DNA of 64,000 nucleotides from an uncultured Planctomycetia bacterium (GCA_964402785.1 CAYODQ010000002.1:5763-69762), one strand, 5' to 3'. Counted from the first letter of the stretch, positions 2,826-58,448 are shown. Program-made: numbers and translations. Notes: generated by a model from the sequence alone, not told the origin.

Positions 2826-2906
2826 GTGCACCAGAGCACCGGCGCACCTGAGCACCAGCATCTCTAGGCTTTTTGGTGCCCTGGTGCCCTGGTGCCCTGG
2901 TGCTCC
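2826..2906. repeat. long imperfect hairpin made of 8-nt tandem repeats (GCACCNGN x4 / TGGTGCCC x4) around a 13-nt loop, with a T-run on the plus side
   Basis: Left arm gtgcaccagagcaccggcgcacctgagcaccagca. Right arm tggtgccctggtgccctggtgccctggtgctcc, approximately the reverse complement of the left arm. Followed by aaattttttttt. The plsC stop codon lies in the loop. Confidence 0.6.
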
Positions 2907-3601: not shown

Positions 3602-4283
3602 CCGTCTGGGGTATTGTCAATGGCGTGGTGTCTAGGACAAGCGCTCCTTTGGCCACTTTGAGGGCGCCTGTTTTGCGCTTAGTATCTGTGGCATCACGGG
3701 TTAGGATCTCCCGGTAAACTTGGTTAAAAGTGGCCTTTTTGCCCTCCGCCAAGAGCTCTTTAAGCCTTCTGCGGGCGCGAAGCTTGGGATCGGCATCAAA
3801 ATAGAATTTGTAGTCCGCCTTGGGAAATACCACGCTTCCGATATCCCGGCCTTCCATGACAGCGCCGCTTTTGGCGCCCAGGATACGCTGCTTTCTGACC
3901 ATCTCCACTCTTATCTTGGGTTCGCGGGCTATGTAAAAAACATTTCGTGTTAATTCGGGCGTACGTATTGCCTTTGTTACGTCCTTACCATCCAAAAAAA
4001 CACGTTGCCCTGTAGGGGCAGGGCTTGTCCCTGCCCGCTTTCGGGCACCCACAAGGGGCGCCCCTACAAAACGAATTTTAATTTTTTTGGCGATTTGGAC
4101 TAAGGTTTTAACATCTTCCAGAGATACACCTTTTTGCATGGCCTTAAGCGTGACAGCGCGGTACATAGCACCCGTGTCGATGTACGGAAGTTTGAGCTTA
4201 ACGGCTAATGCTTTGGCGGTGGATGATTTGCCGCTTCCAGCCGGGCCATCGATGGCGATGATGAGTTTTTTCTTAACAGGCAT
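3558..4283 (-). CDS. cmk: cytidylate kinase carrying a ~20-aa in-frame insertion encoded by a palindromic repeat element
   Basis: IAIDGPAGSGKSSTAKALA P-loop matches Cmk. The likely start is M at 4283 (MPVKKKLIIAIDG); the longer ORF begins at 4319. The segment RFVGAPLVGARKRAGTSPAPTGQRVFLDGKDV has ~20 extra residues compared with E. coli Cmk (RFVSTNGNLEVILEGEDVS). Confidence 0.85.
   Translation of the reverse strand: MPVKKKLIIAIDGPAGSGKSSTAKALAVKLKLPYIDTGAMYRAVTLKAMQKGVSLEDVKTLVQIAKKIKIRFVGAPLVGARKRAGTSPAPTGQRVFLDGKDVTKAIRTPELTRNVFYIAREPKIRVEMVRKQRILGAKSGAVMEGRDIGSVVFPKADYKFYFDADPKLRARRRLKELLAEGKKATFNQVYREILTRDATDTKRKTGALKVAKGALVLDTTPLTIPQTVDKILAILGEARGA
4010..4068. repeat. ~59-nt palindromic repeat element (GTAGGGGC...GCCCCTAC family) inserted in frame within cmk
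   Basis: ccctgtaggggcagggcttgtccctgcccgctttcgggcacccacaaggggcgcccctaca contains nested stems GTAGGGGC/GCCCCTAC and GGCAGGG/CCCTGCC. It is clearly homologous to 20582-20644. Confidence 0.55.
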
Positions 4284-20581: not shown

Positions 20582-20644
20582 TTTAAACATAGTAGGGGCG
20601 GGCCTCGTGCCCGCCCACAAAAACGAGGGCACCCGTAAAGGGCG
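20582..20644. repeat. ~60-nt palindromic repeat element (second copy of the GTAGGGGC...GCCCCTAC family), between purA and serA
   Basis: gtaggggcgggcctcgtgcccgcccacaaaaacgagggcacccgtaaagggcgcccctac. Outer 8-9 bp stem and inner perfect stem GGGCGGGC/GCCCGCCC. Aligns along its whole length with 4012-4067. Confidence 0.55.
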
Positions 20645-20661
20645 CCCCTACGATAAACGCA

Positions 20662-28690: not shown

Positions 28691-29558
28691 GTCGGACGAT
28701 CTCGCTCAGTTTAAGCAGCCTCGTCAGGAGCTTTTCGAGCTCGGAAAGCTTGACCATATTAGGCCCGTCGCTTGGCGCATGATCTGGATCTTCGTGAACC
28801 TCCATAAAAACACCGTCCACACCGGCCACCACTCCCGCTTGGGCCAATGTCGGCACAAAGCGCCTATCTCCACCTGAGCTGGTGCCGCGACCGCCCGGCT
28901 GCTGAACCGAATGCGTGGCATCAAAAATAACCGGATAGCCGTATTCACGCATGATCGGGATCGACCTAAAATCATTCACCAAAGTGTTGTAACCAAAAAA
29001 TGTGCCTCGCTCCGTAAGCATCACCCTAGAATTTCCGGTCGACGCCACCTTATCGGCGACATTTCCCATCTCCCAGGGCGCTAAAAATTGGCCCTTTTTG
29101 ACATTGACCACTTTTCCTGTGTGGCCGGCGGCTAAAAGAAGATCTGTTTGGCGGCATAAAAATGCAGGGATCTGAAGCACGTCGGCAACTTTTGCTGCAG
29201 CCCGCGCTTCCTCGGGACTATGGACGTCAGTAAGAATCGGCAGCCCTGTCTCTTTTTTGACCGTAGCCAAAATAGACATGCCATCTTGTAAGCCTAGGCC
29301 CCTAAACGAAGACATGGAGCTGCGATTGGCTTTATCGTAACTGGATTTATAGATCAAGGGCATCTTGAGGCGTTTTGTGATCTTCTGGATGGCTTTGGCA
29401 TGGCGGATGGCACTTTTTTCATTTTCGACCACACACGGACCGGCAATCAAAACCAAAGGATGTTGTCCGCCAATCAAAATATTGGCCAATTTGACGATTT
29501 TTTGTTCGGAGTTTGGAGTTCGGAGTTCGGAGGTTTTATTTTTTTTAATACTTTTCAT
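28680..29558 (-). CDS. kdsA: 2-dehydro-3-deoxyphosphooctonate aldolase (Kdo8P synthase)
   Basis: QKIVKLANILIGGQHPLVLIAGPCVVEN aligns to the E. coli KdsA N-terminus. The first ~18 codons (MKSIKKNKTSELRTPNSE) are encoded by the repeat hairpin, and the ATG sits in the hairpin loop. Confidence 0.85.
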   Translation of the reverse strand: MKSIKKNKTSELRTPNSEQKIVKLANILIGGQHPLVLIAGPCVVENEKSAIRHAKAIQKITKRLKMPLIYKSSYDKANRSSMSSFRGLGLQDGMSILATVKKETGLPILTDVHSPEEARAAAKVADVLQIPAFLCRQTDLLLAAGHTGKVVNVKKGQFLAPWEMGNVADKVASTGNSRVMLTERGTFFGYNTLVNDFRSIPIMREYGYPVIFDATHSVQQPGGRGTSSGGDRRFVPTLAQAGVVAGVDGVFMEVHEDPDHAPSDGPNMVKLSELEKLLTRLLKLSEIVRHDR

Positions 29559-29596
29559 CTAACACGTCTCCCAACTCCGAACTCCCTACTCCGAAC
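29504..29596. repeat. long imperfect hairpin built from GTTCGGA heptamer tandem repeats, spanning the pyrG/kdsA junction
   Basis: Left arm gttcggagtttggagttcggagttcggagg. 37-nt T-rich loop holding the kdsA ATG. Right arm ccaactccgaactccctactccgaac. Confidence 0.6.
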
Positions 29597-29602
29597 TTCA
29601 TT

Positions 29603-38275: not shown

Positions 38276-40395
38276 ACCAGGCTCTCCGATAACGATACGC
38301 CGGATGGACGCTTGTTATTGATGAGATGAAGGACGGCATCCAACACTTCCTGCACACTGATCTTCTTCATACACGGATGGCCGATCGGACAGCTTCTGAG
38401 ATAACAAGGGCTGCACTGAAGCTCTTTCCAAAACACCTGATGATGTGAGGGCGGCATCAAGTGTCTTTTAGGATCAGTGGGCCCGAAAATAGCCACAAGC
38501 GGTATATCCAAGCTGGATGCGATATGCATTGGAGCCGAATCAGAGCTGATAAACACCTGACAACGCCTGATCAGCGCCGTGAGCTCTGTGATCGTCGTTT
38601 TTCCGACAGCATTCACCGGCTTGTTGCGTGTTTGCGATAAAAGCTCGTCCGCCAGCGCCTGCTCTTCGTGAGAACCCGTGATCACCACGCGAATATTTCT
38701 CCTCGCCAACTCATCGCAAAGCTTGGCGTAATTTTCCACAGGCCAAAGCTTGGTCGGCCATCGCGGAGACGATCCCGGATTGATCCCGACCAGGATCTGG
38801 CTGGGAGAAACCCACTGGGACTCCAAAAATTTTCCGATCTTCTCATCCTCACTCTTTTCCGTCCATATCTCAAGCTGCTTTGAGGATGGCTCGACTCCGA
38901 TAAGCTTCAGGACCTGAAATTGATGATCGATAGGAGAAATTGTTGAAAAATCGCCCTCTGCGCGCCGGTTAAGAAAAAAAGACCATTTGCGATTTTTGTG
39001 CCCCGCGCGCACCCGGGCACCGCAGAAAAATGAAAAGAAATGACTCAGTCGATTGTTTTGAAGATCGATAGCAATATCAAAATCCTCGCCAGCCAACAAC
39101 CGGGCCATCCGAAGCGCCGATCGCCATTTGTGCTTCATACTCTCTTCATAGACCATCACATCATCCACATACGGACAATTACGAATGATCTTTCTCGATT
39201 TTCTTCCAACAAGGACCGTGATCCAGGCTTTGGGATATTTTTCACGCAACGCCCTAAGAGAAGGAATACTGAGTATCACATCCCCAAGCGCACTCAACTT
39301 GATGACCAATATTTTTTTTCGGGAAAGCGCTTCTTCGTATACCTTGAGCTTCTTCTCAAACATCATGGGAAGATCATACTCAGCCTCGACTTTGGCGCGC
39401 AAAGATTGGGCTAGGTTTTTGGCCAGAGATTCGTCTTTGAGTATCCTCAACACGGCGTCCGCCAATTCGCGCGGATCCTCGGGACCCACCAATAATCCGT
39501 CTTTTTCGTGCTCAATGATATCCACCAAGCCACCCATGCGCGTCGCCACCACAGGGACACCGCAAGCGCCTGCCTCGATCACGACACGCCCAAAAGCCTC
39601 TTCGCCCACCGACGGCGCCACCAAAACCGACATCTTACTCAAAAGCTCTGGAATATTATATCGGGTCCCCATGAACTGAACTGCCTGCGAAAGCCCAAGG
39701 TTACGCGTGAGCATCAAAAGCTCTTCTTTGTATTGTGGTTTGGGCGCATCTCCAATGATCTGGATCTTGATATGCGGATAAACTCGCACGACCCGTGCCA
39801 TGGCTTTCAAAAAAAGTGGGTGTCCCTTGATCGGTGTCAGCCTCCCCACCAAACCGATCACCACTTCCTTTGTTGCTGCCAGTTTTTCAGCGTCGCGCAA
39901 TTTAAACTCTTCCAAATTGACACCACGCGGGATCATGCGGATCTTTTCGTGAGGTACACCAAAGTCATCTCGCATGCGCTTCCCAATAATATGGCTAGCG
40001 ACAATCACGTATTTGCCCCAACCCATCGGACGGCTTAAAAGGTGTTTACTATAAAAACCGTGGCTCGTTGTCACGAACGGAACCTGAGTGTAGCGGCTCA
40101 CAAAATAAGCGATCAGGGCGGGAACGCGGCTGCGGGCATGGATCACATCGATACCCTCCATGCGAACGATTTTGATCAATGCTTTTACGGAGGCGATGAT
40201 AGAAAAAACTGATTTTTTATGCACCGGAAGCGCATAATGCGTGACACCCGCTGACACGAGCTCGCCAACCAGAGGGCCCCCAGCTGAAACCACCACAGCC
40301 TTATAGCCTTTACGTTTTAAATACTTCGCCAGATCGACCGACCCGCGTTCAACCCCGCCTGATTTGAGCTCTGGCAATATCTGAAGCACGACCAT
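38272..40395 (-). CDS. GT4 glycosyltransferase fused to a C-terminal GT9 heptosyltransferase domain
   Basis: N-terminal ~370 aa carries the GT4 EX7E motif (EEAFGRVVIEAGACGVPVVATRMGG). C-terminal ~330 aa is a GT9 domain (ILVIKLSALGDVILSIP ... SSDSAPMHIASS). Confidence 0.75.
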   Translation of the reverse strand: MVVLQILPELKSGGVERGSVDLAKYLKRKGYKAVVVSAGGPLVGELVSAGVTHYALPVHKKSVFSIIASVKALIKIVRMEGIDVIHARSRVPALIAYFVSRYTQVPFVTTSHGFYSKHLLSRPMGWGKYVIVASHIIGKRMRDDFGVPHEKIRMIPRGVNLEEFKLRDAEKLAATKEVVIGLVGRLTPIKGHPLFLKAMARVVRVYPHIKIQIIGDAPKPQYKEELLMLTRNLGLSQAVQFMGTRYNIPELLSKMSVLVAPSVGEEAFGRVVIEAGACGVPVVATRMGGLVDIIEHEKDGLLVGPEDPRELADAVLRILKDESLAKNLAQSLRAKVEAEYDLPMMFEKKLKVYEEALSRKKILVIKLSALGDVILSIPSLRALREKYPKAWITVLVGRKSRKIIRNCPYVDDVMVYEESMKHKWRSALRMARLLAGEDFDIAIDLQNNRLSHFFSFFCGARVRAGHKNRKWSFFLNRRAEGDFSTISPIDHQFQVLKLIGVEPSSKQLEIWTEKSEDEKIGKFLESQWVSPSQILVGINPGSSPRWPTKLWPVENYAKLCDELARRNIRVVITGSHEEQALADELLSQTRNKPVNAVGKTTITELTALIRRCQVFISSDSAPMHIASSLDIPLVAIFGPTDPKRHLMPPSHHQVFWKELQCSPCYLRSCPIGHPCMKKISVQEVLDAVLHLINNKRPSGVSLSESLV

Positions 40396-57206: not shown

Positions 57207-58448
57207 CTATTTTAACCCTATACAAACCCTTGGGATGCGACTGTGCAAAGCGCAGACGATCTCATAAGGTATTGTTTGGGACAAAGAAGCAAGGTCTTCG
57301 GCTGAAACAGACCTTCCTTTCTGCGATCCAATAAGCGTCACAGCATCCCAACGTCTGATTTTTTTGTCCAACCCTATATCCACCAAGGTTTGATCCATGG
57401 TCACCCGGCCCGCAACCGGATATTTTTTTTCGCGTATCAGCACCTGCGCCTTATTTGAGAATGCAACTCTATAACCATGGCTATAGCCGATCGGGAGGAT
57501 GGCAATGCGCGTTTTCTTTTTGGCTTTGTACGTCGATCCGTAGCTCACAGCGCGCCCCGCAGGCACTTCCTTGAGAAAAGAAATGCGAGCATACAAGCTT
57601 AAAACCGGCTTGAGGGATATTGGTAATTTTTTATTTTTCCACGGATTGAGGCCATACAACGCAATCCCCGGCCTCACGCAATTTTCATGTGCATCTGGAA
57701 ACCTGATCAAACCCAGGCTATTGGAAGTGTGGATATATCTTGGGCTGAACCCCGTATCTCTGACCTTTTCAAGGCACTTGCGAAATAATTTAAGCTGGTC
57801 ACGTGTGGCTCTGCCAACAATCTCGTCTGTATTGGCAAAATGAGTGTACAGCCCGTCCACCCGGATCTTTCCCCCTTTTCGGATGCGCGCTAAAAGCGGA
57901 TCCAATTCTTCATGCCACACACCCAAGCGGCCCATTCCTGTGTCCACTTTTAAATGAATGGGAAATGATGCATTTTCCGGCAAAAATCTTTCAAGCGCCT
58001 CCACATCTTCCTCGCAAGAAACCGTGGGCCTTATTTCCCACTCAACATATGAAGGCACCTGATTCGGATGAAAGCTCCCCAAAACAAGGATCTGCGCTCG
58101 CGGACAAATACGACGAAGCTCGGAGGCCTCCACCCAGTTGGCCACGCCAAAAAAACGCACACCCTCTTGATACAAAGTCCCGGCCACAGCTTTCATGCCA
58201 TGACCATACGCATCCGCTTTCACTATGGCTAAAATCTCAGAGTTAGCGACACGCACATGCTTCCGGATCTGTTTCAAATTATGCCGCAATGCATTGAGAT
58301 CGATCTCGATCCACACAAGCGGCCCCAAATTGCTCTTGGTTCGGAGTTCAGAGTTCGGAGTTCGGAGGTCGTTTCTGGTGACTGGTGCCTGGCGCTCTGG
58401 TGCTCTAGTTTGTGGTCTCTTCATCATTTCTTGATCGTCACATTGCAA
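57207..58448 (-). CDS. alr: alanine racemase (true start probably ~58320; the longer ORF reads through the repeat region)
   Basis: AIVKADAYGHG PLP-lysine motif. LVWIEIDLNALRHNL aligns with the E. coli Alr N-terminus. The upstream 45 codons include RTPNSELRTKSN, which is encoded by tandem repeats. Confidence 0.85.
   Translation of the reverse strand: MQCDDQEMMKRPQTRAPERQAPVTRNDLRTPNSELRTKSNLGPLVWIEIDLNALRHNLKQIRKHVRVANSEILAIVKADAYGHGMKAVAGTLYQEGVRFFGVANWVEASELRRICPRAQILVLGSFHPNQVPSYVEWEIRPTVSCEEDVEALERFLPENASFPIHLKVDTGMGRLGVWHEELDPLLARIRKGGKIRVDGLYTHFANTDEIVGRATRDQLKLFRKCLEKVRDTGFSPRYIHTSNSLGLIRFPDAHENCVRPGIALYGLNPWKNKKLPISLKPVLSLYARISFLKEVPAGRAVSYGSTYKAKKKTRIAILPIGYSHGYRVAFSNKAQVLIREKKYPVAGRVTMDQTLVDIGLDKKIRRWDAVTLIGSQKGRSVSAEDLASLSQTIPYEIVCALHSRIPRVCIGLK
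58338..58408. repeat. composite tandem-repeat module: GTTCGGA heptamers (x4) followed by TGGTGC-type repeats, between tsaB and alr
   Basis: ggttcggagttcagagttcggagttcggagg, tcgtttc, tggtgactggtgcctggcgctctggtgctctag. The same two repeat families form the hairpins at 2826-2906 and 29504-29596. Confidence 0.55.

Follow-up and report, generated by a model that had tools for sequence, protein, structure and literature searches.

Heptamer and octamer repeat arrays of about 30 nt at three gene junctions of a compact genome from an uncultured bacterium

Genomic context and anatomy of the repeat arrays

The window, i.e., the whole stretch of DNA analysed (64,000 nucleotides, 64 kb), comes from an uncultured bacterium assigned to Planctomycetia, and the named homologs of its KdsA, Alr, and PlsC proteins were mostly labelled Candidatus Omnitrophica/Omnitrophota; the window is read here as part of an Omnitrophota MAG. 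The genome in the window is very compact and strongly strand-biased, with 55 of the 58 long ORFs on the minus strand and most neighbours overlapping or abutting, and the three plus-strand ORFs (103-123 aa) are probably spurious. The gene names used at orthologous loci were confirmed by recorded Pfam domains. A search of the whole window against Rfam at the gathering threshold gave 0 matches.

Two families of tandem arrays were found at three junctions, plsC/rpsA (J1), pyrG/kdsA (J2), and tsaB/alr (J3), namely H, built from GTTCGGA units, and O, built from TGGTGCCC-like units, each array having about four units and about 30 nt (Table 1). All six arrays comprised 3.8-4.7 units over 29-33 nt (TRF scores 38-60), so that head-to-tail units within the 5-11 nt range of long simple-sequence repeats extend beyond chance length. 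A two-unit H probe matched the window 9 times against 0.63 expected, and a two-unit O probe 7 times against 0.32 expected, with none of the 100 shuffles reaching either count; one O-probe match, at 39007, looks like a chance match. In total, three array loci with two unit families were counted in the 64 kb. A preliminary description of this DNA had reported two modules, each repeated four times, at these three gene boundaries, inverted at J1 (O'/O) and J2 (H/H') and in direct order at J3, and running into the plsC C-terminus, the kdsA start (with its ATG in the loop), and the open alr frame. The sequence, the TRF calls, and the junction reads agree with this picture, and the H and O arrays are real and far above chance, except that the O module of J3 is a mixture of 7- and 8-mers rather than a clean octamer array. 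Moreover, two other assemblies (ENA ERZ3430527 and Logan SRR7369924) contain J1 without a single base difference, and its 5' arm was identical in loci L125 and L126, indicating that J1 is not an assembly artefact.

Table 1. Positions of the arrays and neighbouring features (window coordinates unless a locus is named)
Feature	Position	Strand	Description
J1, plsC/rpsA junction	2826-2906	-	mRNA-sense order plsC, O'-loop-O, rpsA
J1 5' arm (mRNA sense)	2874-2905	-	O' array GAGCACCA + (GGGCACCA)x3; last ~11 PlsC codons; TRF 2874-2903, TGGTGCCC x3.8, 100% matches
J1 loop	2859-2873	-	AAAAGCCTAGAGATG; holds plsC stop TAG (2864-2866)
J1 3' arm	2826-2858	-	Degenerate O array TGGTGCTC AGGTGCGC CGGTGCTC TGGTGCAC; upstream of conserved rpsA leader; TRF 2828-2858, degenerate inverted partner, 78%
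rpsA leader region	2751-2825; L127 2257-2339; L131 3680-3745	- (window)	
J2, pyrG/kdsA junction	29504-29597	-	mRNA-sense order pyrG, H-loop-H', kdsA
J2 5' arm	29568-29597	-	H array GTTCGGAGTAGGGAGTTCGGAGTTGGGAG in the former pyrG-kdsA spacer; four GGAG motifs; TRF, inverted partner at the same positions
J2 loop	29533-29567	-	35 nt, A-rich; in-frame kdsA start ATG (29556-29558)
J2 3' arm	29504-29534	-	H' array (TCCGAAC)x4 within kdsA codons 9-18 (TSELRTPNSE); TRF 29504-29532, GTTCGGA x4.1
Upstream ORF	29545-29601	-	18 codons, MKFGVGSSELGDVLDEKY*, through the J2 5' arm
J3, tsaB/alr junction	58339-58406	-	mRNA-sense order tsaB, O'-H', alr
J3 O' array (mRNA sense)	58374-58406	-	GCACCAGA GCGCCAG GCACCAGT CACCAGA; TRF, 7-/8-mer mix, TCTGGTGC-like, x4.4
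J3 H' array (mRNA sense)	58339-58371	-	TCCGAAC TCCGAAC TCTGAAC TCCGAAC; TRF, GTTCGGA x4.7
ATGA overlap	58424-58427	-	tsaB stop TGA (58424-58426) with ATG (58425-58427), in frame with alr via both arrays
Alternative alr start	58326-58328	-	TTG (MGPLVW...); gene caller's choice in the 92% relative, AGGAG preceding there
CTCC/CCTCC in arrays	window J1-J3; L128 5188-5218; L132 391-416		Side observation
Second, palindromic family	1107-1137, 4011-4068, 20591-20652		GTAGGGGC...GCCCCTAC copies

Hairpins at plsC/rpsA and pyrG/kdsA

The inverted arrays at J1 and J2 give hairpin stems of 29-33 bp, separated by 15 and 35 nt, respectively. Hairpins had been proposed for all three junctions, and structure prediction on the sense-strand RNA bore this out for J1 (-55.4 kcal/mol, z -5.8) and J2 (-48.7 kcal/mol, z -9.6), but not for J3, which was less structured than its shuffles (z +1.45) and has no stem. 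At J1, the 5' arm encodes the PlsC C-terminus ...EHQGTRAPGHQKA. The junction is retained in the relative with 83% PlsC identity (L127), where (GTCACCAG)x4 is followed by a loop with the plsC stop and by a 3' arm of CTGGTGAC type. The two arms have changed in concert, as GGCACCAG is paired with CTGGTGCx in the window and GTCACCAG with CTGGTGAC in L127, i.e., a G-to-T change in the 5'-arm unit is matched by a C-to-A change in the 3' arm, and the L127 hairpin also folds (-51.0 kcal/mol, z -5.3). A joint RNAalifold run on the two sequences gave a weak consensus owing to register slip within the repeats, and the separate folds were clearer. In the relative at 67% identity, no array is present and plsC continues directly to the conserved rpsA leader. 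In the window, UUUU comes after the sense-strand J1 stem, and no U run is present in the L127 tail.

Beside J1, the window and L127 share the ~69 nt directly before the rpsA start at 100% identity, whereas the adjoining PlsC reaches only 83%. The 67% relative retains a core of this segment, GTAAATCGA...GGTCGTCG, whose two parts are separated by a variable hairpin. It is probably a conserved rpsA leader or autoregulatory element, and it had no Rfam match.

At J2, the relatives tell a different history. The pyrG-kdsA gap measures 1, 6, and 13 nt and carries no array in relatives at 89, 80, and 77% KdsA identity, respectively, which identifies the hairpin as a recent gain in the lineage of the window. 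The closest relative reads TAAAATGAAAC-ACGTG where the window reads TAAAATGAAG-(28-nt H arm)-ACGTG, and, in the sequence comparison, deleting 30 nt at kdsA codons 9-18 restores a relative-like KdsA N-terminus. The last GGAG of the 5' arm ends 9 nt upstream of the kdsA ATG. In addition, the ATG of an 18-codon upstream ORF occupies the kdsA-start position of the closest relative (TAAAATGAA); this ORF is read in a different frame from kdsA and ends 12 nt beyond the kdsA ATG. The preliminary description had named conservation of position or structure among relatives as a point to check, and conservation is seen for the positions of J1 and J3 and for the J1 hairpin, whereas J2 is absent from the three relatives.

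The likely source of the J2 insertion lies in the same genome. Of 31 bases, 29 agree between the J2 3' arm and the J3 H array, including a terminal GGT; no shuffle gave any match, and the ortholog of J3 in L129 (92%) is less similar to J3 than this arm is. Intragenomic copying between the two is clear, in line with the modular, recombining family that had been proposed. Because J3 is shared by relatives, it is the older of the two, and J2, being new, most likely received the J3 copy. J2 would thus most likely represent a copy of the J3 array together with a more diverged inverted copy.

Turnover of arrays at tsaB/alr

J3 differs from the other two junctions in its direct arrangement and in its depth of occurrence. 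The alr frame is open through both arrays back to the ATG overlapping the tsaB stop. In L129, six or seven O'-type units precede four H' units; its O' array measures 45 nt, that of the window 30 nt. The final H' unit of L129 pairs with the AGGAG ahead of the TTG start. At 75% Alr identity (L128), the arrays read (GGTCACAA)x4, (GCACCAG)-type units, and (TCCGAGC TCCGGGC)x2, H' having drifted to TCCGRGC. Unit number and unit sequence thus vary among relatives at one locus, at J3 (L129, L128) as at J1 (L127). Further away, L132 (59%) carries (AAGACAG)x4 and (GTCCTCC)x4, i.e., the same architecture with different units and partial pairing (z -3.0), and L219 (52%) carries (AAAATCT)x~4.7. Hence, arrays occur at tsaB/alr in five lineages with three unrelated unit sets.

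No array was found at tsaB/alr in the remaining 12 Alr relatives examined (52-61% identity); a metagenome search for close Alr relatives returned only those at or below 61% identity. Those array-free relatives in which a short lead can be seen have their alr ATG at the tsaB end or inside it, and most Omnitrophota Alr proteins have 8-14 residues ahead of the conserved W. An ancestral tsaB/alr junction lacking an array is established by these relatives, and tsaB/alr is a permissive site with recurrent, independent array gains.

In all four array-bearing lineages checked (L219 lay outside this check), reading from the ATG located at, or overlapping, the tsaB stop gave an open frame in phase with the alr body despite differing array lengths, suggesting that J3-type arrays are translated in these four lineages; the sample is small, and phase would be retained by chance in about 1 of 3 independent events. 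Moreover, CTCC or CCTCC is present in the alr-proximal array of the window, L129, L128, and L132, unlike as their units are.

Distribution across phyla and the 30-nt length

A degenerate 22-nt H probe detected at least 120 loci in genome contigs, answering the question of further (GTTCGGA)n copies raised by the preliminary description, which had held that a lack of both further copies and conservation would point to chance; copies and conservation at J1 and J3 were both found. The matches listed fall in Cyanobacteria, Verrucomicrobiota, Omnitrophota, Bacteroidota, Desulfobacterota, Planctomycetota, Nitrospirota, Acidobacteriota, and others, with (GTTCGGA)n in Crocosphaera, Calothrix, and Dolichospermum among them. 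Among these listed matches, H arrays lay inside long open frames in 34% of cases compared with 65% of random positions, an inverted partner accompanied 18 of 136, and between co-directional genes no strand preference was seen (22 vs 21, crude ORFs). The non-query arrays among the same matches were mostly of period 7 (188), with 58 of period 8 and 47 of period 6. In viral contigs, (GTTCGGA)x3 occurred at 14 loci, compared with 27, 6, and 2 for three composition-matched control heptamers, and O-type units were likewise present. The idea of GTTCGGA as a special, horizontally spreading unit was rejected, since composition-matched heptamers are similarly frequent there; H being one of many array-forming heptamers, its wide occurrence needs no horizontal transfer.

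The array length was more uniform than the unit. In Omnitrophota loci, nearly all arrays were 4.1-4.4 units of 7 nt or 3.8-4.1 units of 8 nt, about 30 nt in either case, and the non-query period-7 arrays among the matches listed had a secondary length mode at 30-32 nt. In a 267-kb set not picked by array length, period-7/8 arrays were either below 20 nt, as in shuffles, or 28-35 nt, with almost none between, and shuffled sequence contained no arrays of 28 nt or more. This ~30-nt length rule is accounted for by none of the explanations considered below.

Arrays were also dense in other Omnitrophota loci, with 4-7 arrays per 4.5-8 kb in L027, L083, and L104. L027 (1-4522, Omnitrophota MAG nzgw316) contains seven period-7 arrays of about 30 nt each, which use at least five different heptamers and are located at gene ends, directly ahead of a start codon, and apparently in frame within two ORFs; there, (AGTTCGG)x4.4 encodes VRSSEFGVRS inside a 352-aa ORF. 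In L080 (3809-3891), L090 (610-673), and L104 (3598-3678), also Omnitrophota, adjacent arrays are complementary apart from one systematic mismatch per unit, e.g., GTTCGGA with TCCGCAC, indicating that each arm was homogenised separately after the pair had diverged.

Comparison with known repeat systems

The J1-J3 arrays belong to the class of heptamer/octamer long simple-sequence repeats known from Geobacter, cyanobacteria, Xanthomonas, and Beggiatoaceae, with the four-unit elements of Geobacter metallireducens and the cyanobacterial STRR as the closest precedents, and H and O are new unit families of this already described kind. In G. metallireducens, Gmet_H4 (GGACCGG x4) has 49 copies inside and between genes, and three further classes, GTTGCTYN x4 (class 1, 24 pairs), TCTCCGTS[Y] x3 (class 2, 21 pairs), and MTYCTGA x5 (class 3, 8 pairs), consist of three to five tandem 7-9-mers, mostly as opposite-strand pairs at variable distance (Aklujkar et al. 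2009, PMC2700814). Certain sites qualify for classes 1 and 2 at once, one pair is located between proB and proA, the elements are absent from G. sulfurreducens, and the authors read the sites as putative binding sites for a global regulator (IHF/HU) (PMC2700814). The present arrays share with these about four tandem units of 7-9 nt per site (all six arrays), hairpin-capable opposite-strand pairs at variable distance (15 nt at J1, 35 nt at J2), coexisting families (two in the 64 kb), lineage specificity, and location both inside genes (J1 5' arm at the 3' end of plsC, J2 3' arm in kdsA, J3 arrays in the alr N-terminal frame) and between them (J2 5' arm in a spacer); the direct pair of two families at J3 resembles the Geobacter sites of both classes. 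They differ in unit sequence, which does not fit the Geobacter consensus, and in phylum, so that they are the same kind of element but other families, and the Geobacter copies number dozens per genome against three loci counted here in 64 kb.

The cyanobacterial STRR or long simple-sequence repeats have units of 5-11 nt (Mazel 1990 and Mrazek 2007, as cited in PMC4692102 and PMC4679880), and the over-representation of heptamer repeats in bacteria is established (PMC4692102, PMC4679880). As with STRR, tandem heptamers lie mainly outside gene interiors here and period 7 dominates among the matches listed; many unit families per genome are an STRR trait that the present genome may share. STRR arrays are sometimes much longer. 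The defining STRR units CCCCAAT, TTGGTCA, and CAACAGT are unlike H and O, and we know of no STRR description that includes inverted pairing or a ~30-nt length mode. TAACTGA direct repeats, for which a role in translation has been proposed, occur in marine Beggiatoaceae, cyanobacteria, and Bacteroidetes, with one dominant unit and a strong forward bias (169 direct sets vs 1 indirect) (MacGregor 2015, PMC4679880). As with H and O, that unit is seen in several phyla, whereas H and O comprise two units with hairpin pairs and, among the matches listed, no orientation bias across phyla. The intergenic heptamers GGGAATC of Xanthomonas and GGGGA(T/C)T of Nostoc, some in inverted pairs, recur at the same junctions in related species with varying length and sequence (Rehm 2015, PMC4692102). 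Unlike H and O, which lack G runs, these heptamers are rich in G and form G-quadruplexes. A literature search for the H and O unit strings returned nothing relevant.

Membership of the REP/BIME family, as had been suggested, is not borne out. REP/BIME/REPIN elements are imperfect palindromes of ~20-40 nt with a family-specific conserved sequence and a GTAG-type head, and are associated with RAYT transposases. J1-J3 resemble them in being dispersed, hairpin-forming, extragenic-leaning, and modular in their clusters, but their arms are tandem 7/8-mers without a GTAG-headed palindrome, J3 has no palindrome at all, and the J1 loop AAAAGCCTAGAGATG and the 35-nt A-rich J2 loop are unrelated. REP architecture fits a separate family of the window, GTAGGGGC...GCCCCTAC, rather than H or O.

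Origin and possible function of the arrays

The reading that we favour, at slightly better than even weight, is that the arrays are tolerated, self-perpetuating simple-sequence passengers with incidental effects on the coupling of cistrons, and not dedicated regulators. It starts from what the comparison demonstrates directly, namely the anatomy of the arrays, their gain and turnover across relatives, the paralogous copy, and the preservation of frame. Units within an array would be kept uniform by replication slippage or gene conversion, and whole arrays would occasionally be copied to a new site or inverted beside themselves, most plausibly via template switching in replication or repair. 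They would persist where harm is small, i.e., in the first or last ~10 codons and at tight intra-operon junctions. Since neither unit contains a stop codon in any frame on either strand, ribosomes would read through the arrays, adding short low-complexity tails at the PlsC C-terminus, the KdsA N-terminus, and probably the Alr N-terminus. Complementary arrays flanking a spacer would form a 29-33 bp hairpin in the polycistronic mRNA; that at J2 may bury the GGAG motifs beside a kdsA start exposed in the loop, in which case kdsA translation would rely on ribosomes coming from pyrG, possibly by way of the 18-codon upstream ORF. The J1 and J2 stems would also be long enough to serve as RNase III substrates.

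Several observations speak against passengers and for selected elements. The paired changes at J1 and the persistence of J3 down to 75% Alr identity could reflect selection for function, and the CTCC or CCTCC near alr in four lineages hints at a constraint at the RNA or peptide level. The arrays might be selected cis-regulatory RNAs, either processing and stability hairpins (RNase III sites, 3'-end protectors) or coupling hairpins that hide ribosome-binding sites, with the C/A-rich tract of J3 tuning alr initiation. The great stability of the sense-strand hairpins at J1 and J2, the paired changes in the 83% relative, the paired GGAG motifs and looped-out ATG at J2 with an upstream ORF bridging the pyrG stop and the kdsA start, the pairing of H' with AGGAG in L129, and the CTCC retained in the alr-proximal array of four lineages are all consistent with this. 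We nevertheless consider it rather unlikely, because the J2 hairpin is evidently not needed by three close relatives with gaps of 1-13 nt, J1 is absent at 67% identity, and the J3 units are wholly replaced in L132 and L219; RNase III cleavage of the J2 stem would fall inside the kdsA coding sequence, and, among the matches listed, only 18 of 136 H arrays have an inverted partner and strand bias is lacking across phyla, which argues against a universal sense-strand RNA signal. The single regulatory RNA structure once envisaged for all three sites fails on the unstructured J3. Intrinsic terminators, also suggested earlier, or attenuators at operon boundaries would agree with the strong stems and with the UUUU after the J1 stem. 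Terminator and promoter consensus scans at J1-J3 called neither hairpin, the loops of 15 and 35 nt exceeding the scan's 3-8 nt limit; moreover, J2 has no U run, its 3' arm lies inside kdsA and it is missing from three close relatives, the L127 tail at J1 lacks a U tract, and J3 is stemless, making termination very unlikely.

A further difficulty for passengers is that arrays of 7- and 8-nt units cluster alike at 28-35 nt, since plain slippage should give monotonically decaying lengths; this length ruler suggests a dedicated generating mechanism or a bound factor. One candidate is a platform for an oligomeric nucleic-acid-binding protein, be it a DNA-bound nucleoid-associated or global regulator or an RNA-bound protein of the S1/Csp type, whose four-unit footprint of ~30 nt would set the length. 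The unit-independent length mode fits well, and similar roles have been proposed for Geobacter (PMC2700814), TAACTGA (PMC4679880), and Nostoc heptamers (bioRxiv 10.1101/2022.06.06.494920). Such a platform seems unlikely, given that dozens of unrelated units in one lineage (at least five in 4.5 kb of L027) could not be read by one sequence-specific protein, that a 7-bp period mismatches the DNA helical repeat, and that the arrays also lie inside coding regions and have no orientation preference among the matches listed. Equally doubtful is the broader proposition that the arrays are made or maintained by a length-measuring process in many bacterial phyla rather than being passive slippage products; candidates would be an enzyme that copies a 7-8 nt template repeatedly to write ~30 nt where breaks occur or replication restarts, or a factor protecting four-unit tracts. 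If true, it would explain the 28-35 nt for both unit sizes, the pasting and inversion of arrays, and their insertion in frame. Mobilisation of REP/BIME- or REPIN-type palindromes by a RAYT transposase would account for dispersed hairpins in modular combinations at gene junctions and for the copy-paste event evident between J2 and J3, but it is highly improbable, even more so than termination, in view of the tandem arms without palindrome core or GTAG head, the unrelated loops, the non-palindromic J3, the overlap with coding ends, and the genuinely REP-like family that exists separately in the same window. Finally, the copies are short, few, and confined to one window, as chance microsatellites or assembly artefacts might be; these are refuted by the shuffles, by J1 in independent assemblies, and by orthologous arrays in other samples, and virtually no weight is left to them.

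The over-representation of heptamer repeats in bacteria has been known since 1990-2007. The three junctions add to it a natural series, consisting of a dated gain (pyrG/kdsA), a donor-copy pair within one genome, hairpin arms that change together, one junction invaded independently by three unrelated unit sets, and a shared length of ~30 nt for 7- and 8-nt units, by which the choice between a slippage by-product and a written or bound element becomes testable. In practice, the arrays shift start and stop codons, so that gene callers disagree (the called length of Alr varies between 373 and 418 aa in relatives, and KdsA becomes 15 residues longer), and they probably fragment short-read assemblies.

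Additional repeats and motif resemblances

The H unit holds GGAG and the O unit GGTG, the two halves of GGAGGTG, and their complements CTCC and CACC stand on the sense strand at J3. This likeness, as well as that of CTGGTG to the core of E. coli Chi, we take to be a resemblance and not evidence.

The second family of the window, bounded by GTAGGGGC...GCCCCTAC, is palindromic, unrelated to H and O, and REP/REPIN-like with a GTAG head. It occurs as a single hairpin just past the rpsA stop, as a double hairpin in a 79-nt intergenic gap, and as a double hairpin in frame inside cmk (encoding ..VGAPLVGARKRAGTSPAPTG..); the 83% relative has a shorter form of the last, and the 67% relative lacks it. 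In L018 (Calothrix), L086, and L114 (a delta-proteobacterial MAG), GTAGGGGC- or GCAGGGGC-headed GC-rich hairpins are nested within (GTTCGGA)n arrays, and these nested hairpins resemble both the second family of the window and small dispersed repeats inside heptamer arrays.
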